From the IMG/VR virus record IMGVR_UViG_3300022758_000006, positions 1 through 6,494 of that record: a DNA stretch of 6,494 nucleotides, one strand, 5' to 3'. The translations under genes were made by a program, and so were the position numbers. Origin of the DNA: a virus. Under the pieces are notes generated by a model, which saw only the letters and a list, made by a program, of their open reading frames with translations, was not told where the DNA came from and did no database searches. Position 1 is the first letter of the stretch. Each line of letters begins with the position of its first letter. Below are positions 1 through 6,494 of the stretch, piece by piece.

Positions 1-127
1 AGTTTTTCGGCATAGGCAGAACCAATACCGCCATTCTTACGGGAAGCGAGCATAAACGTAGGATTCATACCTTTGGGAGCGCATTCGCGTTTACCCATAT
101 ATTTCATGACATAATTGATACCACCAT
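1..127. repeat. Terminal direct repeat, copy 1, identical to 6368..6494. It marks a circular 6367-nt genome linearised with a 127-nt overlap.
   Basis: Compared base by base: agtttttcggcataggcagaacc...catgacataattgataccaccat occurs at both window ends. The run of 5 T's at 3..7 matches 6370..6374, and both copies end in ccaccat. Confidence 0.9.
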
Positions 128-767
128 TGATAACAGGAACACAATAAGCAAAACCAATAGACCTAGTAACAGGTGATCCGTCAGGATTGTACTCACCAGT
201 AGGACGACGCCAGCAGCTTTCAATGAGTGTAAGCCGCGAGTATGCGGTTTCAAAGTTATCAGGGAAATTCCATAATATAATATGATAGTGAGGACGTTTA
301 GACCAGTGTCCATACTCAGAAACTGCAATATAGCGAAGATTATGAGAAATACCACGTCTATCAAGTTTGGTACGAAGACGTTTAAAAAAGAGTTGAATCT
401 CTTCCGGAAATACTCCGTTTTTCGGTAAGTGTTCATTGTTATAAGTAAGAGTTATAAAATAGGCTTGTTTATTAGAAGTGTACGACTCACAGAGGGCACG
501 AAAAGACCATTGTTGAGCTTTTTTTTCATTACAAAGAGCACATCTGTTACAAGGAACAATCAAGAACATAGGGAAAGTTTCACCAGTAGAAGGATTCACA
601 ATAGTATATTTATCAATATTGTTTTTATTAACATGATTCTTGTTCACATGGAGAACAGAACCGTGATATACTCCGGATGGCATAGTAAACGTACGATACT
701 TCTGTACCAGCTTAGAGGCATGTGGATGCCAAATTACTTTAGGGTCTTCACAGTAGATATTATTCAT
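1..767 (-). CDS. VP4: Replication initiation protein (Microviridae VP4/Rep, HUH rolling-circle endonuclease), N-terminal about 255 codons. The C-terminal part is the same reading frame continuing across the circular junction into 6367..5779. The left window edge truncates this copy.
   Basis: Translated by hand on the minus strand from ATG at 767..765: MNNIYCEDPKVIWHP...VPCNRCALCNEKKAQQWSFRALCES...YFITLTYNNEHLP...RPHYHIILWNF...INGGINYVMKYMGKRE. There is no stop between 839 and 1 in this frame (stop TAA at 842..840). From established knowledge, the gokushovirus VP4 N-terminus has the pattern C..P...PCG.C.GCR...WA.R...FITLTYDDEHLP. Motif I FITLTY lies at 441..458, motif II HYHIIL at 273..290 and motif III YVMKYMGK at 90..113. 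The ORF track missed this frame because it is incomplete at the window edge. Confidence 0.85.
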   Translation of the reverse strand, partial: MNNIYCEDPKVIWHPHASKLVQKYRTFTMPSGVYHGSVLHVNKNHVNKNNIDKYTIVNPSTGETFPMFLIVPCNRCALCNEKKAQQWSFRALCESYTSNKQAYFITLTYNNEHLPKNGVFPEEIQLFFKRLRTKLDRRGISHNLRYIAVSEYGHWSKRPHYHIILWNFPDNFETAYSRLTLIESCWRRPTGEYNPDGSPVTRSIGFAYCVPVINGGINYVMKYMGKRECAPKGMNPTFMLASRKNGGIGSAYAEK

Positions 768-893
768 AATAAATAGTTTTAGCGGACGGAAGCCGCACTT
801 TGGGCAAATCGTAACTTTTCCGGTGGAAATAATCAAAGATTAGAGGTGTGTCAGTTACTACATACTTATCAAGTTATAGCGGTACGATTTTGG
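768..893 (-). promoter_or_regulatory. Intergenic region upstream of Rep and downstream of the VP2 terminator; presumed Rep promoter region.
   Basis: About 125 nt of non-coding sequence between the terminator hairpin and the Rep ATG. It contains TA...TTTG-like elements (TACGATTTG, TAATCTTTG) but no exact match to the Bacteroidetes -7 consensus, and there is no SD before the ATG. Confidence 0.25.
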
Positions 894-926
894 AATAAAT
901 CGTGAAAAGCCGGAGGACATCCGGCT
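894..926 (-). terminator. Putative rho-independent terminator directly after the VP2 stop.
   Basis: Read on the minus strand after the TAA at 934..932: AGCCGGA-TGTCC-TCCGGCT (plus-strand positions 908..926), a perfect 7-bp GC-rich stem with a 5-nt loop. It is followed by TTTTCACGATTTATT. Confidence 0.5.
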
Positions 927-931
927 AATCA

Positions 932-2080
932 TTAACGAAATCCAATTGGAGACATAGACTTTCCAAGGAAACCACCTTTCTGCAAAGAAGTAGTAGCGCC
1001 AGCAAATTGACCGACAGCAAACGATAAGGAATTAACCCAAGTTGTAGCAACATTAGTAAAACGTTCGGTTGAATCCCAGTCTTTAGCCTGGTCAAAGTTA
1101 AACTTAGCATGCTGATTGGAAATATCAATACCAGTTTGCTTATACAATTCAGTCATAGTTTGTTCACTAGCTAACAATCCTTGTTTTTTCATCATATAAG
1201 TAGACGCATTCAGATTCATTACACGAGCCATTTGCGTAGCCATCATATCTTGCACTTCGGCCGCATTAAGAGCAATACGAGAATTACTCTCTTTCATTTC
1301 CTGATATGTTTTCTTACACAAAAGCTCAAAATCCTTAGAACGCAAATACCTATCAAACTTCATTTGGACAAGATTTTCACTTATTTGTGATTGTTGAGCC
1401 TTCATTGTATTAATACGCTCACGAGCTTCAGACATGGCAACATCAATTTCCTGAAGTTTCTTTGCAGCAACTTCGGCTTCAGTATGATTTAATTGTCCGA
1501 GCTCATGATTTACGTAAATAGTTGAATTGTTCAACTCGATATCACTTTCCGTACGAGCTTTGCGAAGCAAGTAGTCAGCCGTAAGTAAGCTTTCTTCAGT
1601 CTCTGTTTTCTTACTTTCGGAATTTGCTAAACGAGCTTGCGCAGCTTTCAACCCAGCATCAGCAGCGATTTGTGCAGTCTGTCCGTAAGTATTCGTAGGT
1701 ATCACATTGAATCGAGGTGTAGGAGCTTGCGCAGGAGCTTCAGGAGCAGTTGCATTTCCTACGTCACCACGAGAGTACATCAAATCCGGATTCAAACCGG
1801 CTTCTTTCAAACGTAGCATTTGCGCAGCAGGAGAATTATATGAGTTGTTTTTCTCATACATTTGCTCTATCCAAGCTTGTTGCGCCAAACGTTCTTCACG
1901 AGCGAATTTACTTTCACGCTCAAAGGCTTCGGCAGATGCCTTGCGGTTACTTCTGTTACCGAACCAGTTACCAATAGCGGAAATAGCAGCGCCACCAATA
2001 GCGCCAATAGCCGTACCGATTCCAGGAACAACAGAGCCAGCAGCAGCACCAGCGGCAGCACCAGCGGCAGGACTAGGCAT
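932..2080 (-). CDS. VP2: Minor capsid / DNA pilot protein (Microviridae VP2-like), 382 aa.
   Basis: The N-terminus is Gly/Ala-rich (PAAGAAAGAAAGSVVPGIGTAIGAIGG). It is followed by ...NSYNSPAAQMLRLKEAGLNPDLMY..., which resembles the conserved VP2 motif ...MSNTAYQR...KAGLNP.L.Y of microviruses. The middle of the protein is coiled-coil-like. The gene sits directly after the VP3-like gene: TGA of that gene, 2 nt, then ATG. Confidence 0.7.
   Translation of the reverse strand: MPSPAAGAAAGAAAGSVVPGIGTAIGAIGGAAISAIGNWFGNRSNRKASAEAFERESKFAREERLAQQAWIEQMYEKNNSYNSPAAQMLRLKEAGLNPDLMYSRGDVGNATAPEAPAQAPTPRFNVIPTNTYGQTAQIAADAGLKAAQARLANSESKKTETEESLLTADYLLRKARTESDIELNNSTIYVNHELGQLNHTEAEVAAKKLQEIDVAMSEARERINTMKAQQSQISENLVQMKFDRYLRSKDFELLCKKTYQEMKESNSRIALNAAEVQDMMATQMARVMNLNASTYMMKKQGLLASEQTMTELYKQTGIDISNQHAKFNFDQAKDWDSTERFTNVATTWVNSLSFAVGQFAGATTSLQKGGFLGKSMSPIGFR
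2036..2070. repeat. 12-bp tandem repeat gcagcaccagcg (about 2.7 copies) encoding the (AAAG)n N-terminus of VP2.
   Basis: 2043..2054 and 2055..2066 are identical, with partial units on both sides. Confidence 0.7.
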
Positions 2081-2082
2081 AA

Positions 2083-2544
2083 TCAGTTATTTTGAGGATT
2101 AATATACTTATCACCAAATTTCTTCTGACGAAGAACCTGAAGAGCCCTACGCTGGGAAGCTTTTTCCATTTCCCAAGCGGTAGCCATATCCATTTCACGA
2201 CGGAATTGCGGCTCTAAATTCCAAGAAGCGTCACCGTTAACGTCAATAAAATTTACGTTCATAGGAGAAACAGGAATACCACGTTTAGCCATTTCGGCTA
2301 CTTGTTGAGGTGTTAAACCTAGATTAGGTTTAGTTCTTTCAAAATCTTTTTGTACATCAAATTCACATGTTACAGATTTGTAATCCGGTTTTGTATTTCT
2401 AGCCATAATTGTAAAATTTAAAATTTTAATATTTATTTGTGCGTCCGAGCGGGCTTTCCGGCTCAAACATATCTTCGCTACGCTACGATACTCGCCTGCA
2501 ATCCCTGACGCACGCAACAAAGTTGCTATTAATTTGCGTTTCAC
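2083..2544 (-). CDS. VP3: Putative internal scaffolding protein (VP3-like). The maximal ORF is 153 aa. The more likely functional start is the ATG at 2406..2404, which gives 107 aa.
   Basis: The segment ...LTPQQVAEMAKRGIPVSPMNVNFIDVNGD... resembles the [M/I].R..RG[LI]P[LV] region of gokushovirus VP3 scaffolding proteins; this rests on remembered patterns, not a search. Its size and its position adjacent to VP2 fit. The N-terminal 46 codons of the long ORF run through a GC-rich hairpin region (2439..2513) and look non-protein-like. An AT-rich stretch sits just upstream of the 2406 ATG. Confidence 0.45.
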   Translation of the reverse strand: MKRKLIATLLRASGIAGEYRSVAKICLSRKARSDAQINIKILNFTIMARNTKPDYKSVTCEFDVQKDFERTKPNLGLTPQQVAEMAKRGIPVSPMNVNFIDVNGDASWNLEPQFRREMDMATAWEMEKASQRRALQVLRQKKFGDKYINPQNN

Positions 2545-2620
2545 GCAGAGGGAAAATACTTTTCCCTTTTAATCTTACGAAATTGCAAAGATAGGTATGC
2601 GCGCGCGACAAGTCCAATGA
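2439..2620. promoter_or_regulatory. GC-rich structured island inside the long intergenic region downstream of VP1. It holds several hairpins and a (GC)4-5 run.
   Basis: There is an inverted repeat gtgcgtc(2439..2445) / gacgcac(2507..2513). Two hairpins are present: gagcgggc-ttt-ccggctc at 2448..2465 and tgcgt-ttc-acgca at 2534..2546. A perfect 8-bp hairpin agggaaaa-tac-ttttccct at 2552..2570 is followed by tttt. The run atgcgcgcgcgac sits at 2597..2609. Confidence 0.5.
2549..2574 (+). terminator. Terminator-like hairpin plus T-run on the plus (non-coding) strand.
   Basis: AGGGAAAA-TAC-TTTTCCCT is followed by TTTTAAT on the given strand. No plus-strand gene precedes it, so it may block antisense transcription or act as a structural element in the ssDNA. 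Confidence 0.3.
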
Positions 2621-2621
2621 A

Positions 2622-2690
2622 CCTAGTACTAATAATTGATTAAATATTATAACAGAGTTCTAATATTTAACAATTATTACTACTAGAACC
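2622..2690. repeat. Long imperfect AT-rich palindrome of about 65 bp. The perfect 10-bp inner arms ttaaatatta(2640..2649) / taatatttaa(2661..2670) are separated by an 11-nt spacer; the outer arms cctagtactaataattga / caattattactactagaacc carry one mismatch and one 1-nt bulge.
   Basis: Reverse-complementing the right arm by hand gives ggttctagtagtaataattgttaaatatta, against the left arm cctagtactaataattgattaaatatta. Confidence 0.6.
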
Positions 2691-2758
2691 CTTGGAGCAA
2701 GTCGCACACACATGCCTAAAAGATGCAATGTCGGAAGAAAAAAGAAAAAATTATTTTC

Positions 2759-4960
2759 TTAATCTAGTCGCGGTATTGCAACACGGCTGATTGGTAATCG
2801 GGCAATCGCGTTAAACTTCACGTATCCGAAAATTTTATCCGTGTACTCCGTGACACTGAAAACCTGATTAACTGTATCAGAATCAACAAGTAAAAACTCC
2901 TGACCAAGTTGAGGTAATCCGGAGAACACACGAGACATAATGAAATTTTTCATGTTAGTACGGAACAAACCGTGTGCACTATCATACTTAGCAACATATT
3001 CATACCACGGACGTTGATACCCGAATGTTTTATTCAATTGGTCAGTGCTGTCATTTGCAACAATATTCATTGGGCAAATTTCCTTATACGTGACAGGTTG
3101 AAAACCAATACGGTCAAATTCCGGTTGATAGTGGTCAAGTAAACCATTGTATGTAAAATCTTTAGGTAACAATTGCGTATAAATAGGCACAGGAGTCACA
3201 GTTAATAAACCAATAATATAAGATTCCTCATCACAGAATACTTCAATATTATTAGACGTAGAACCATATACTCCGGCAATACCGGTTTTAGAGCCAAGAG
3301 CTTCGGCATACTGACCTTGAGAGCTAGCGCTCTGTTGGTCTACGGTCTGCTCAACTGTACGCATAGACAATTCACGAGAAATACCGCCAATAAATTCAGG
3401 CATAAGGAGTTCATCAAATCGAATATCAATATCCCAACGACCTTGCATGATTTGTTTATATGAAAAACCTTTACGCATGTTAAGTTCAAGGAATTTCTGA
3501 TAAGCATTAACATAACGAAGAGTCTCAATAGTAAAGCCAGAACCTTCAGTAGTAGCAAGGGCAGCGAGTTCCGCATACGAATTAATAGCGGTAACAGGAG
3601 TTTTTTCAGACACAGGATCATAATCAACGCCTACAAGACGCTCACCATCTTCAGAAACTTTATAAGATAATCCATACTTAGAGCCGTCTTCGTCAACAAG
3701 AACAGTTTGTTTTTGAACGGAGTAAGTTCCATCATCTGCACGAGTAACAACATCACCCATAACAAGACCAACGAGAGGAGCATTAGCACCTTGTTGAGGA
3801 TTCGGTACGGCAGTGGTCAAAAAATCACGCTCCCAATTACACTGACGAAGTTCATATAACGTAGTATCAGCACCACCTTTCATATTAGGCAGCCATTTGT
3901 TATAAACAGGACGACCATTAACTACAAAAGGATTGTTACGTACGTCACGATAGTATGCATTATACACAGATTCATAAGCGCGGAAACGATAAGCCAACAA
4001 ATGAGTATTATTCGGACGATTTTCAGTAGCAAACGGATATGTACTATAAACTACGTCATTTTGCAAAATATAATATGTATAAGTTACGTTGAAACTAATA
4101 TTAGCAAAACTAATAGGAGAGGCAACATTAGGAGCAGTAATGGCAACAAGCGGCGTACCTTGAATATTACCAAAGCTAGAGGGGTCAATAGATGAAATAC
4201 TAGCACCAACAACACCATCAGCAGACTTTTTAAACTCAATTGGCAAATCAAAACCATAAGTACTATCATCACCAAGAAAAACAAAATAACCTCTTGCACC
4301 GTCAAAAACTTCAGATTGACCACCATTAAGAGTAATATCTACGCCAACTTGAGAAACAGAAGCCGGAATAGCAGTAGAAGAACCAGCAGTATTAAAAATA
4401 ATAGTTTGAGTTCCATCAGTATTCAAAGAAGTAGTACATTGTTGAGAAGGGATACCTCCATCAGCACGAATACTATTCATAACATCAGATAAAACGGTAT
4501 CCGTAATAGCACGAGATTTGGCAGCACAAGGTTTATCAACAAGAGTAACAGTAGAAGAGATACGAGTTCCAAATGTAGGCAAACCTAAATAATCACCTAG
4601 TGTACCAGTGCGACACATTCGATTAAAACGAGACGAATCAGGCAAAATATATGGCTCTACCAAGTCATCACGGAAATTAGAAATGAAGTCGGAATAATCC
4701 TCCCACATGGAACGGAGAGTTACCTTGAAAAAATTAAGGCGAGCAAACATACGAGTTTGGACAGGAAATACCATAGGCATCAGCTCAAGACCGAACTCGG
4801 GATTAATACGAAGAGAGCCTTTTGCAGGAACAAGCTCACAAAATACCGGAGTAATACGACCAAAATTAGTGGTCAAATTATTCACATGAGACCAATCAAA
4901 CGAATTTACATCAATACGATTATTCGCATCAAATGTAGCGTCAAAAATGTTTTGTGCCAT
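2759..4960 (-). CDS. VP1: Major capsid protein VP1 (Microviridae F/VP1 family), 733 aa.
   Basis: The N-terminus ...NSFDWSHVNNLTTNFGRITPVFCELVPAKGSLRIN... matches the gokushovirus pattern S.FDRS....TTF..G.LIP....EVLPGDTF. DYLGLPT matches exactly, and ...YESVYNAYYRD... is like ...WNQYYRD.... The 733-aa length with a long Ser/Thr-rich central insertion is typical of alpavirus-like VP1. The start overlaps the stop of the upstream small ORF (TAATG). Confidence 0.92.
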   Translation of the reverse strand: MAQNIFDATFDANNRIDVNSFDWSHVNNLTTNFGRITPVFCELVPAKGSLRINPEFGLELMPMVFPVQTRMFARLNFFKVTLRSMWEDYSDFISNFRDDLVEPYILPDSSRFNRMCRTGTLGDYLGLPTFGTRISSTVTLVDKPCAAKSRAITDTVLSDVMNSIRADGGIPSQQCTTSLNTDGTQTIIFNTAGSSTAIPASVSQVGVDITLNGGQSEVFDGARGYFVFLGDDSTYGFDLPIEFKKSADGVVGASISSIDPSSFGNIQGTPLVAITAPNVASPISFANISFNVTYTYYILQNDVVYSTYPFATENRPNNTHLLAYRFRAYESVYNAYYRDVRNNPFVVNGRPVYNKWLPNMKGGADTTLYELRQCNWERDFLTTAVPNPQQGANAPLVGLVMGDVVTRADDGTYSVQKQTVLVDEDGSKYGLSYKVSEDGERLVGVDYDPVSEKTPVTAINSYAELAALATTEGSGFTIETLRYVNAYQKFLELNMRKGFSYKQIMQGRWDIDIRFDELLMPEFIGGISRELSMRTVEQTVDQQSASSQGQYAEALGSKTGIAGVYGSTSNNIEVFCDEESYIIGLLTVTPVPIYTQLLPKDFTYNGLLDHYQPEFDRIGFQPVTYKEICPMNIVANDSTDQLNKTFGYQRPWYEYVAKYDSAHGLFRTNMKNFIMSRVFSGLPQLGQEFLLVDSDTVNQVFSVTEYTDKIFGYVKFNAIARLPISRVAIPRLD

Positions 4961-5157
4961 TAAAAATGAGGCTTAATAGTTACTGAATCTACCTTTTGTT
5001 GGGTAGTTTGTTGAGAATCCTGTTTTGAATTTTGATTTTTCCAAAAAACAGACATAGACGCAGTACAGGACTGTACTGTAAGGGCAGTAATCACACCAAT
5101 AATAAATGTAGAAATCAGCTGTACAAGCTTAATCCACTGACTAGGAGTAATTTTCAT
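4960..5157 (-). CDS. Small membrane protein (65 aa) with an N-terminal signal-peptide/TM segment ending in ...LTVQSC (lipobox-like), followed by a Q/S/T-rich hydrophilic tail. Candidate lysis, spanin-like or superinfection-exclusion lipoprotein.
   Basis: The protein is MKITPSQWIKLVQLISTFIIGVITALTVQSCTASMSVFWKNQNSKQDSQQTTQQKVDSVTIKPHF. Its start overlaps the preceding ORF (ATGA) and its stop overlaps the VP1 start (TAATG), which indicates translational coupling. Confidence 0.5.
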   Translation of the reverse strand: MKITPSQWIKLVQLISTFIIGVITALTVQSCTASMSVFWKNQNSKQDSQQTTQQKVDSVTIKPHF

Positions 5158-5318
5158 AATTTTTCAAGAATTAACAAAACATCATAACCTAAATTAGCAT
5201 CCTGCAATTGCTTACGAAACCGTTCGGCAGTTGAAGGACGGTTGAAAATACCAATATTTATAAGAAACTCCTCATGAAGTGTTTCTCTTTTAATAAACTT
5301 TAAAACACCTTTATACAT
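5154..5318 (-). CDS. Small hypothetical protein (54 aa): MYKGVLKFIKRETLHEEFLINIGIFNRPSTAERFRKQLQDANLGYDVLLILEKL. The track ORF extends to 5471 (105 aa), but that N-terminal half overlaps the 73-aa ORF out of frame and looks like a hydrophobic artefact.
   Basis: The ATG at 5318..5316 lies 1 nt after the TAA of the upstream 73-aa ORF (TAAtATG). The C-terminal half has protein-like composition. The stop overlaps the next ATG (ATGA). Confidence 0.4.
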   Translation of the reverse strand: MYKGVLKFIKRETLHEEFLINIGIFNRPSTAERFRKQLQDANLGYDVLLILEKL

Positions 5319-5319
5319 A

Positions 5320-5541
5320 TTAATAGATTTCTTTATAAAAACGAACATGAAGAACGTTTTGGGTATTAAACAAACGACGAGCGTAAGCACGAGCATCATT
5401 AATAGACATTTGAGATTTCTTACGATACTCATAAGGTTTAAGACGTCCGGTTTCAGGATCACGCCAACCAATTTCGAAAATAAAAGTATATTTACTTATC
5501 ATTGCACAACTTGAAAGTTTTAAAACAATCAAGGCAAACAC
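5320..5541 (-). CDS. Small hypothetical basic protein, 73 aa. An alternative start at M14 (5502) gives 60 aa: MISKYTFIFEIGWRDPETGRLKPYEYRKKSQMSINDARAYARRLFNTQNVLHVRFYKEIY.
   Basis: The residue composition is diverse and protein-like, with charged residues. The gene is packed tightly against its flanking ORFs. Confidence 0.45.
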   Translation of the reverse strand: MFALIVLKLSSCAMISKYTFIFEIGWRDPETGRLKPYEYRKKSQMSINDARAYARRLFNTQNVLHVRFYKEIY

Positions 5542-5686
5542 CTAATATCTTACACTTAGTAGCCCTAGAAAAACACTTAGAAACAAGGATAGCGTCTTTC
5601 AAACTAATAGCTTTAACAAAAGTAAAATCATTAAGACCATTCTTATTAACATAAAAAATAATGTAAAAATCTGCAGTTTTATCCAT
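5492..5686 (-). CDS. Small hypothetical Cys-rich protein (64 aa): ...CFSRATKCKILGVCLDCFKTFKLC. Possibly a zinc-ribbon-like protein.
   Basis: It is the first ORF after the Rep stop (92-nt gap). Five Cys fall in the last 26 residues, including a C-x2-C pair. It would overlap the next ORF by 11 to 50 nt depending on which start is used. Confidence 0.3.
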   Translation of the reverse strand: MDKTADFYIIFYVNKNGLNDFTFVKAISLKDAILVSKCFSRATKCKILGVCLDCFKTFKLCNDK

Positions 5687-5778
5687 AACACATAAATTAA
5701 ATTAGTATTCCTTTTTCTTACACTACAAAGATAAGAATTCTTTTGTTAATAAAGTGTTAATCAAGCGTTAAATCTAGT

Positions 5779-6494
5779 TTAAATTTTCTCTTTTCTATAA
5801 TGTTTATTCATCTTCTCACGAACATCATAAGAAGCTTTTTTAAGATTAAGCTCCTCTCTCATAGACATTCGAGCATTGATAGCAGATTGTTGTAAAGAAT
5901 TCATTTGTAAGGATTTTTCATGCTTCAGGACTTGAGAAGAATCAAAGAATACAAGAGCGGTAGACAGGCAGTCAAGCGCATAACTAAATGCTTTATAATA
6001 CAAATCCTCATAAACAGTCTGTGAACAGAGTTGAGGAAGATAATACTTTATAAATGTATCATTTATAACAGTTTTGTAAGGATTATAATAAGGAGTTTTA
6101 CCAGTCATACGAACAAGGCGAAGATATTCTTCAGGATAAGTAAACTTAAAAGGAAGTTTGTATTGCTTATGGAGATAACGAGCAATTTCAAACCAGCGTA
6201 CAGTATCCTTAAAATACTTAATAAAATTAGAGTCATAACACATTGAAGTAGACGGCATAAACTTCATGCGGTAATAACGAGGTAACATTGTAGTCAATGA
6301 TTGTCCAGTATAAATATTAATAACAGACATATCACAAGTATCCGGCTGCTGTTCATAAAAAGCGCGAAGTTTTTCGGCATAGGCAGAACCAATACCGCCA
6401 TTCTTACGGGAAGCGAGCATAAACGTAGGATTCATACCTTTGGGAGCGCATTCGCGTTTACCCATATATTTCATGACATAATTGATACCACCAT
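5779..6494 (-). CDS. VP4: Replication initiation protein VP4/Rep, C-terminal part (the second copy of the junction region is included). The full gene is join(767..1, 6367..5779), about 451 aa.
   Basis: The 231-aa track ORF MKYMGKRE... is the in-frame continuation; its M at 6474 corresponds to position 107, inside motif III. Stop TAA at 5781..5779. Total 1356 nt, which is 451 codons plus stop. Confidence 0.85.
   Translation of the reverse strand, partial: GGINYVMKYMGKRECAPKGMNPTFMLASRKNGGIGSAYAEKLRAFYEQQPDTCDMSVINIYTGQSLTTMLPRYYRMKFMPSTSMCYDSNFIKYFKDTVRWFEIARYLHKQYKLPFKFTYPEEYLRLVRMTGKTPYYNPYKTVINDTFIKYYLPQLCSQTVYEDLYYKAFSYALDCLSTALVFFDSSQVLKHEKSLQMNSLQQSAINARMSMREELNLKKASYDVREKMNKHYRKEKI
6368..6494. 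repeat. Terminal direct repeat, copy 2 (same sequence as 1..127); assembly or concatemer overlap of the circular genome.
   Basis: Exact identity to 1..127 with offset 6367. Confidence 0.9.

Follow-up and report, generated by a model that had tools for sequence, protein, structure and literature searches.

A Long, Covarying Hairpin in Gut Microviruses as a Candidate Promoter-Mimic Origin of Complementary-Strand Synthesis

Introduction

Phages with single-stranded DNA (ssDNA) genomes need a complementary-strand (minus) origin, and in phiX174 and G4 this is an intergenic hairpin region near the capsid gene, used in the conversion of ssDNA to the replicative form (PMC9865509). In other microviruses, the so-called reekeekee- and roodoodoo-microviruses, conserved and covarying intergenic hairpins of 13–64 nt have tentatively been regarded as minus origins (PMC9865509). 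A different solution is found in M13, where RNA polymerase synthesizes the primer on a minus origin that serves as a promoter-like template (PMC7948647), and in the F plasmid, whose Frpo element is a stem-loop that restores the −35 and −10 boxes on ssDNA and thereby recruits RNA polymerase, a finding that the same paper credits to Masai and Arai 1997 (PMC9849209). The subject of this report is a hairpin of about 207 nt in the microvirus genome IMGVR_UViG_3300022758_000006 of IMG/VR (positions 1 to 6,494; this whole stretch of 6,494 nt is called the window hereafter), which, by analogy with the latter systems, is tentatively read as a complementary-strand origin built as a promoter mimic on the packaged single-stranded genome.

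Gut microviruses are among the most abundant phages of the human gut and are almost uncultured. For the conversion of their ssDNA to duplex, a step known only for phiX174 and G4, the hairpin provides a concrete, sequence-defined candidate. If the proposed reading is true, no complementary-strand origin would have been defined before the hairpin in Microviridae beyond the phiX/G4 group, and no ssDNA promoter for the sigma-ABfr type, i.e., the primary sigma factor of Bacteroidota. It would also mean that RNA-polymerase-primed origins arose in Microviridae besides Inoviridae and plasmids, and it would offer a natural pre-melted substrate for the study of this unusual sigma factor, a compact part for ssDNA vectors in Bacteroides, and a host-phylum marker for metagenomic microviruses. 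Judging from the sequence, what is possibly new is the occurrence of an ssDNA origin/promoter hairpin in a new family, with a different sigma type and a dual purpose. No description of this element was found in the literature; the word “hairpin” is absent from the papers on Bacteroidetes proviruses and on Alpavirinae, in which the one mention of “palindrom” concerns dif sites.

Extent and Folding of the Long Hairpin

The window corresponds to a circular microvirus genome of 6367 nt, whose first 127 nt are repeated at the end as a terminal duplicate (1–127 and 6368–6494), and every one of its genes lies on the minus strand. In Microviridae the packaged strand is the coding strand, so that the minus strand of the window is the packaged one, and the relevant strand is the reverse complement of the strand first read. 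All features described below are on this minus strand unless stated otherwise.

The whole imperfect hairpin spans 2552–2758, starts 1 nt after the VP1 stop codon (2759–2761), and forms the 5′ part of a conserved non-coding module of 352 nt (2407–2758) that ends at the ATG of a 107-aa open reading frame (ORF). Folded as DNA, it has a minimum free energy (MFE) of −50.8 kcal/mol on the minus strand (z = −13.6) and of −45.1 kcal/mol on the plus strand (z = −10.2), while the minus strand folded as RNA reaches −90 kcal/mol (z = −12.3). The minus strand folds better than the plus strand because the alternating tract TGTGTGTGCG of the 5′ arm (2703–2712) pairs with the alternating tract CGCGCGCGC of the 3′ arm (2599–2607) via T·G wobbles. 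At its 5′ base (2733–2758), GAAAATAA is followed by the poly-pyrimidine tract TTTTTTCTTTTTTCTTCC, and the two pair with 2552–2577; next to it, the 5′-arm helix CCGACATTGCA (2724–2734) is the partner of 2578–2588. No other region of the genome has a structure comparable to that of the long hairpin.

A first-pass annotation had noticed only the center of this structure, an AT-rich palindrome of about 65 bp at 2622–2690, placed in the intergenic region downstream of VP1. The perfect 10-bp inverted repeat that it reported is present (TTAAATATTA at 2640–2649 and TAATATTTAA at 2661–2670, with an 11-nt spacer that is the loop, 2650–2660), and these 69 nt fold well beyond chance on both strands, at −18.5 kcal/mol on the minus strand (z = −9.8) and −14.1 kcal/mol on the plus strand (z = −7.7), with 0 of 200 shuffles as good. 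The palindrome is therefore real, but its extent was put about three-fold too small, as 2622–2690 is the apical third of the hairpin. The description as AT-rich likewise suits this third and not the whole, which contains the alternating CG/TG tracts at 2599–2607 and 2703–2712.

The apex is the most variable part across homologues, and other lineages carry (CG/TG)n-TTTC-(CG)n in its place. In the 6.4-kb genome, alternating (CG/TG)n runs of at least 4 repeats occur only in the two stem tracts and at 2508–2516, and at least one such run is present in 65 of the 72 aligned hairpins described in the next section, located mid-stem in the lineage of the window and at the apex in most others. The tract, an alternating purine-pyrimidine sequence that is Z-prone and CpG-rich, is thus retained while its position shifts.

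Covariation and Strand Specificity

Homologous copies were collected by BLAST of the intergenic region and by pattern scans of IMG/VR, metagenomes, and species genomes; the first pattern used on viruses was too strict (6 loci) and was relaxed twice. True copies were set apart from chance matches by their folding energy (−38 to −60 vs −9 to −36 kcal/mol), giving about 99 true copies, distributed among GenBank microviruses, IMG/VR, gut metagenomes, and a prophage in Bacteroides sp. f07. From these, 72 non-redundant copies, comprising roughly 11 visibly different hairpin lineages, were aligned with MAFFT; the apex was not structurally aligned and was excluded.

The hairpin structure is under selection, and its pairing is kept by compensatory changes. 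The RNAalifold consensus of the 72 copies contains 52 pairs, 30 of which have compensatory double changes, and 98.8% of the pair cells are paired, although such cell counts overstate the number of independent events because the sequences are related. The corresponding value is 87.2% when partners are shuffled, with none of 500 shuffles reaching the observed one, and it drops to 42–51% when partners are slid by 1–3 columns; the covariation score behaves in the same way (0.350, vs 0.146 for the shuffles and at most 0.06 for the slid alignments). Covariation among relatives, which the first-pass annotation had named as one of its checks, is therefore evident. Helices 1–3, at the base of the hairpin, are 96–99% paired, with double changes in loci L005/L006, and helix 4 (2724–2734 / 2578–2588) is 100% paired, the change of ATTGC to AATGC in the L017 lineage being compensated by that of GCAAT to GCATT. 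A further example is a G–C pair switched to C–G in 18 of the 72 copies (54 to 18) within the otherwise conserved CCAAG[G/C]GTT : GTT[C/G]ATTGG.

The pairing is also specific to one strand. Of the 3719 pair cells, 3294 are Watson–Crick; wobbles (G·T or T·G) account for 380, A·C or C·A mismatches for 8, and other combinations for 37. Two of the wobble pairs are invariant. The ratio of wobbles to A·C mismatches is not purely selective, since the C-to-T mutation bias of ssDNA viruses raises the number of T·G wobbles. Each wobble is an A·C mismatch on the complementary strand, and for this reason the hairpin appears to be selected on the viral/coding strand only, in agreement with the earlier proposal that it forms in the single-stranded genome.

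This asymmetry bears on a group of explanations that place the function in duplex DNA, where the hairpin would be an operator or cruciform at a promoter, the intrinsic terminator of VP1, a packaging signal, or a folded Xer/dif attP. The element is indeed palindromic, it overlaps a promoter-like site, and both of its strands fold beyond chance; yet the 380 G·T pairs vs 8 A·C pairs would amount to hundreds of mismatches on the complementary strand, which contradicts the cruciform or operator that had been suggested from the single sequence. As for an intrinsic terminator, the stem is followed by AAGATTAAAAGGG, which has no T-run, and the terminator scan made no call there; a GC hairpin with TTTT stands after VP2 instead. 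The packaging signal, another early suggestion, found no support, and no hairpin signal for packaging is known in Microviridae. The attP reading conflicts with the prophage copies discussed below. Taken as a group, these explanations are considered very improbable.

The earlier placement of the element outside genes holds over the homologues, since a stop-free frame across the hairpin exists in only 1 of the 72 copies. A coding region is thus rejected, and the “hypothetical protein” drawn there in the GenBank record of Tortoise microvirus 1 (L003 3139–3432) is spurious. Known structured RNA families, such as 6S, riboswitches, and ribozymes, were likewise set aside, as no covariance model matched near its gathering score: the hairpin of the window has no Rfam match at E ≤ 1, and the sole match in its relatives, a plant miRNA precursor at 37 bits vs a gathering score of 245, is meaningless.

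Promoter-like Elements in the Folded Strand

The consensus of sigma-ABfr is TTTG near −33 and TAnnTTTG at −7 (PMC7366714). In the 3′ arm of the hairpin, the −33 look-alike ATTG (2615–2618) lies 20–21 nt upstream of the −7 element TATCTTTG (2586–2593), which matches TAnnTTTG; as a motif match alone, the composite ATTG-N20/21-TA[T/C]CTTTG agrees with the consensus save for the first −33 base. The spacer between the two elements measures 21 nt in 65 of the 72 copies and 20 nt in the other 7.

The string CCTA[T/C]CTTTGCA is invariant in the 3′ arm. The patterns used to scan metagenomes and genomes required ATTG and CCTAnCTTTGCA, so that for the loci from L033 onward this invariance is by construction, and the unbiased evidence comes from the 22 copies that were retrieved without the motif. 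The string is invariant in these as well, with TA and TTTG constant and one of the n positions varying (TC or CC).

In the window TAnnTTTG occurs 17 times vs 8.2 expected, with 14 of the 17 on the coding strand, and sigma-70-like sites are no commoner than in shuffled sequences (19 vs 20.4). A sigma-70 promoter at the apex of the hairpin (TTGTTA-N16-TGtTATAAT, 2673–2646, 10 of 12 positions) was rejected on the grounds that the apex is not conserved and carries CG/TG repeats in other lineages. In a search of 185,579 species genomes with the composite pattern, Bacteroidota accounted for 14 of the 15 matches outside hairpins; the genome and metagenome scans together gave 29 such matches, mostly intergenic, 13 of them with a co-oriented ORF start within 250 nt. 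In the window the ORF start lies 180 nt downstream of the −7 element (60 nt in L028), and the sequence upstream of its ATG is A/T-rich and without a Shine-Dalgarno sequence, which is typical of Bacteroidota.

The position of these elements relative to the helices was assessed from pairing probabilities, obtained by partition-function DNA folding and averaged over the 72 copies. The TTG of the −33 look-alike is paired with a probability of 0.98–1.0, whereas the successive bases T-A-n-C-T-T-T-G of the −7 element have values of 0.66, 0.18, 0.11, 0.05, 0.14, 0.16, 0.86, and 1.0, so that the A-n-C-T-T core sits in an internal bubble; the bases that follow are paired again, and the flanking ones have values of at least 0.86. 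Conservation of this bubble is one-sided: the 5′ side (alignment columns 45–60) has a mean column entropy of 0.84, and the 3′ side (columns 191–203) one of 0.40, with the columns of CCTA[T/C]CTTT essentially invariant. As the 5′ side does not contain the complement of the motif, there is no divergent promoter on the other strand. In the modeled fold, the viral strand thus presents a duplex −33 element, a duplex spacer that varies in sequence but covaries, an unpaired −7 core, and a duplex downstream, which is the layout of an open promoter complex.

A Candidate Complementary-Strand Origin

The first-pass annotation had listed a complementary-strand origin among the candidate functions, with the primosome site of phiX174 and the primase site of G4 as models. 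An origin of this kind is also the best functional reading of the present data, made by analogy; the two models themselves receive no positive support from the hairpin, whose anatomy rather suggests a promoter mimic primed by RNA polymerase, as in the M13 minus origin and Frpo. We hold this reading tentatively, at somewhat less than an even chance.

The proposed sequence of events would start with the entry of the viral strand into a Bacteroidota host, upon which 2552–2758 would fold into the long hairpin. Its 3′ arm would then provide the non-template strand of a promoter, with ATTG and the spacer in duplex form and the TAnnTTTG core pre-melted in the conserved bubble, and the host RNA polymerase holoenzyme would bind it as it does an open promoter. 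The promoter elements point away from the apex, hence the 5′ arm, including the helix at 2724–2734, would be the template. The short RNA would leave via the base of the hairpin into the poly-T tract and would be antisense to the 3′ end of VP1; such an RNA cannot be a message, and it would be correctly placed to prime the complementary strand. Extension by the host replicase would convert the ssDNA to the replicative form. Polymerase binding, priming, and promoter activity in either form of the DNA are what we infer from the fold and the motif.

Once the duplex is formed, the same −33 and −7 elements could act as an ordinary promoter of the unit comprising the 107-aa ORF and VP2 (o107-VP2), or of Rep in a second lineage described below. 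The double proposition that the same sigma elements serve two DNA states, priming on ssDNA and an mRNA promoter on duplex, and that the cassette has been exchanged between distant Bacteroidota-hosted lineages is possible, though doubtful as a whole.

The closest parallels are found outside Microviridae. As in the minus origin of the Ff phages (M13/f1/fd), an imperfect hairpin on the packaged strand of a non-coding region carries promoter-like elements, for which polymerase binding is predicted here. The differences are that the Ff origin has two shorter hairpins instead of one of 207 nt and sigma-70 instead of sigma-ABfr-type elements, that the present elements are also positioned to serve as a promoter of the replicative form, and that the virus family is another one; BLAST against the phage database returned only microviruses, and no sequence similarity of the hairpin to the Ff origin was found. 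The bubble has a counterpart in Frpo, where mismatches lie at the −10 region; both are long stem-loops with unpaired bases in the −10/−7 region, and the likeness is one of analogy and not of homology. Frpo and the ssi sites of the leading regions of F and ColIb-P9 are also long stem-loops of one strand with promoter boxes, which are inactivated or changed when the DNA becomes duplex (PMC9849209). Unlike Frpo, which drives sense transcription of the leading region, the ssDNA here is of mRNA sense and the product would be an antisense primer; the host phylum and the promoter consensus differ as well. The hairpins of reekeekee- and roodoodoo-microviruses have no promoter content, whereas the present one is longer, promoter-bearing, and common to distant lineages.

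Several points weigh against this interpretation, in addition to the relatedness of the copies and the mutation bias mentioned above. The −33 look-alike is ATTG and not TTTG, and for the 81 metagenome loci the search pattern itself accounts in part for the invariance of the motif. The motif would be kept for ordinary transcription of duplex DNA alone, and its conservation is no proof of a single-stranded role. The assignment of a host to this particular genome is indirect; we infer it from the promoter type and from related prophages. Moreover, bajarodmic virus 1122, a close relative, has at the same site an intergenic region of another kind, GC-rich and with multiple hairpins, which makes the long hairpin one of several solutions and not a universal one. 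In this virus (L130 2272–2644), G/C runs and a CG/TG hairpin replace the AT-rich hairpin and no TAnnTTTG is present; the GC-rich series may play the corresponding part with another host or another priming system.

A further objection is that the viral strand has the sense of mRNA, so that covariation and the G·T asymmetry fit equally well a hairpin in VP1 transcripts. In such an RNA role, transcripts reading through from VP1 would carry the hairpin as a 3′ stabilizer, as an RNase III processing site, or as an insulator ahead of the downstream unit. There is no terminator between the VP1 stop codon and the hairpin, G·U pairs are well tolerated in RNA, and the low energy of the RNA fold given above agrees with such a role. 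However, small ORFs and not VP1 stand ahead of the hairpin in the second lineage, with Rep after it, and a stabilizer needs neither about 90 bp, nor a one-sided bubble, nor a fixed promoter spacing of 20–21 nt; the lack of an Rfam match to the hairpin also speaks against it. We regard an RNA role as unlikely.

Small Hairpins and the Flavo-1-like Domain

The remainder of the module, 3′ of the long hairpin, contains a series of smaller structures. The first, H1 (GGGAAAAGTATTTTCCC, 2550–2566), overlaps the base of the long hairpin and covaries in the form of lineage changes from GGG/CCC to GAG/CTT or AAG/CTT. Its bases offer alternative pairings, as 2550–2577 can pair locally or extend the long hairpin by pairing with the distal GAAAATA/poly-T tract (2733–2758), and the MFE and centroid structures disagree on this point. 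In bajarodmic viruses 849 and 585 the changes preserve both pairings. The alternative may represent a switch between the ssDNA form and the mRNA leader.

Next to H1, at 2536–2548, a conserved CTG is followed by the mini-hairpin H2, which reads GCGTGAAACGC in 60 copies and GCGCGGAGCGC in 16, with a T–A pair exchanged for C–G, and whose G-N-A triloop is found in 81 of 82 copies; hairpins with such a triloop are known as unusually stable DNA hairpins. AAATTAATA and the hairpin H3 (GCAACTTTGTTGC) then occupy 2514–2535, and the stem of H3 covaries, reading GCAAC/GTTGC in 71 copies and GCAAT/ATTGC in 9. A nick site for Rep, i.e., a plus origin, was considered at AAATTAATAGCAAC, which resembles the AT-rich spacer of the phiX174 origin; it was set aside, as L028 and L110 lack this block and the loops of the hairpin show no conservation.

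These small hairpins speak for the origin models of the first-pass annotation, in which the complementary-strand origin would be recognized by a PriA-type primosome, as in phiX174, or by primase, as in G4, and the promoter of the 3′ arm would have an unrelated function in duplex DNA and overlap by chance. The origin of G4 is a hairpin region near the capsid gene and has a CTG start, and phiX174, G4, and the present virus belong to one family. Three small covarying hairpins, one with a G-N-A triloop, and a conserved CTG just 3′ of the long hairpin would suit such a system, as would the intergenic location by the capsid gene. They are, however, dispensable, since H2 and H3 are missing in L028 and L110, which retain the big hairpin. 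The known PriA and primase (DnaG) sites are shorter, about 50–140 nt instead of 207, and no match to them in sequence or architecture was found; the unpaired −7 core with its one-sided conservation would be left unexplained. This explanation is rated as rather improbable, slightly more so than the RNA role, and the promoter-mimic origin remains the reading that we prefer.

The last structured part of the module, an optional domain at 2439–2513 closed by GTGCGTC/GGACGCAC, is a variant of a Flavo-1-like motif. Two near-matches to Flavo-1 (Rfam RF01705, gathering score 42) were found in relatives, at L001 3110–3169 (−) with 39.1 bits and at L010 3506–3573 (+) with 30.1 bits, while the copy of the window itself, which has an insertion, gave no match to RF01705. 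Relatives follow the consensus of this Bacteroidota-restricted motif almost base for base, a likeness that concerns only this adjacent domain and not the long hairpin. Genomic matches to Flavo-1 are reported to lie in either orientation with respect to transcripts (PMC9723704). Covariation is also seen in the closing stem of the domain (GCGTC/GACGC, GTGTT/AACAC, GGCTT/AAGCC). The domain is absent in L013 and L015 and minimal in Dulem virus 256, and two inner variants of it are shuffled among genomes; bajarodmic virus 1122, which lacks the big hairpin, retains of the module only this domain. No copies of the 3′ block were found in host genomes. After the domain, 2404–2438 comprises the A/T-rich leader and the ATG of the 107-aa ORF, with which the o107-VP2 unit begins.

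Distribution and Genomic Contexts

The element is better conserved than the genomes that carry it. The closest GenBank record to the window, Rattus norvegicus microvirus ON840028, is 87.7% identical overall, and by BLAST its intergenic region is 94.5% identical vs 88% for the genome; the corresponding values are 92% vs 77% for bajarodmic virus 65 and 79% vs 74% for Tortoise microvirus 1. Three further carriers of the element, Dulem virus 256 and bajarodmic viruses 849 and 585, have almost nothing else in common with the window: their VP1 shows an identity of about 22% or escapes detection, and for Rep the figure is about 33% over a stretch of 90 aa. In these three viruses it does not follow VP1 and instead stands after small ORFs, directly upstream of Rep. 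Among all copies, the order VP1, hairpin, 107-aa ORF was found in at least 55, and the hairpin followed by Rep in 24. Better conservation than the carrier genomes, together with the presence in distant lineages at different positions, fits recognition by a host factor more than by a phage protein, and recognition by a host enzyme would explain why lineages with very different Rep and capsid share the element. The sharing also documents the exchange of non-coding modules among microviruses.

The same distribution could be produced by a horizontally moving non-coding cassette, similar to a MITE or a recombination module, that does nothing for the phage except carry a promoter. Its patchy occurrence in two unrelated genome contexts, the presence of a different cassette at the same site in bajarodmic virus 1122, and a Flavo-1-like domain that comes and goes are all in line with such mobility. 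Against it, there is one hairpin copy per genome and no target-site duplication. The 185,579 species genomes yielded 0 and 1 true hairpin copies in two scans, the single one being a prophage. A passenger would not be expected to show such strong purifying selection on pairing, with its many compensatory changes, and we judge the cassette explanation improbable, well below the RNA and PriA/primase alternatives.

The 8200-nt loci L008 and L039 contain two non-identical copies of the module, 6382 nt apart and with different Flavo-1-like variants; they look like assemblies of more than unit length that join two co-occurring strains. In Dulem virus 256, Rep (L004 217–1907) is annotated as a join of two pieces, which are two overlapping frames, and this points to a frameshift or a sequencing error.

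Provirus and Integration Site

A complete provirus is contained in L063, a 14.8-kb contig from the human gut, where it lies between gyrA/TPR and Usp/TPR-SH3/BatD genes. The same junction occurs with 98.4% identity in the isolate genome of Bacteroides sp. f07 (L126, NZ_BAABXI010000001), which provides a cultivable lysogen as a handle on this group of viruses, and several metagenome contigs (L036) have the insertion at this site as well. Direct repeats of 20 nt, ACATA[A/T]TAATGATTATTCCC, flank the provirus at L063 3850–3869 and 10452–10471, 6602 nt apart, and contain the palindrome AATAAT-G-ATTATT. Proviruses of Bacteroidetes microviruses are known to use dif-like att sites (PMC3091885), and the repeats of L063 and f07 fit this description. 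The att core has no match in the window.

The hairpin of L063 and that of Bacteroides sp. f07 stand intact at mid-provirus, with the att repeats elsewhere, and for this reason the hairpin is not the attachment site; this disposes of a Xer/dif attP, the folded form used by CTXphi included, and agrees with the initial impression that an integration site is less likely.

Genome Context and Neighboring Genes

Upstream of the hairpin, VP1 (2759–4960, 733 aa) is the major capsid protein, as indicated by matches to Pfam Phage_F (4.9e-43) and to the PHROG major head protein (4e-83). Downstream, the 107-aa ORF (2083–2406, with its ATG at 2406) is the first gene of the o107-VP2 unit, and the same start is annotated in relatives; a 153-aa ORF with a GTG start (2083–2544) was discarded as an over-extension of it. 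It is followed by VP2, the DNA pilot protein (2080→932). Directly after the VP2 stop codon, a canonical terminator-like hairpin, AGCCGGA-tgtcc-TCCGGCTTTTC, at 905–927 closes the unit; the built-in terminator scan overlooked it because of its short T-run. Rep (451 aa, PF23343) runs from 767 across the origin of the circular map to 5779, and the terminal duplicate left by the circular assembly breaks its ORF when the window is read linearly. No tRNA or tmRNA was found in the window.

A second exact copy of TATCTTTG is located at 5726–5733, in the intergenic stretch that separates Rep from the small ORFs preceding VP1, and its sequence makes it a likely second promoter. The region around it, between Rep and o64, has no hairpin (fold z = +0.7).

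The small ORFs upstream of VP1, several in number, are on the minus strand like all other genes. The one just upstream of VP1 (65 aa, 4960–5157) has a signal-peptide-like N-terminus and a lipobox-like ...TVQSC, and no match to it was found in Pfam or PHROG. It is 61–69% identical in the distant lineage, despite the identity of only about 22% in VP1, and is thus a second module common to both lineages.

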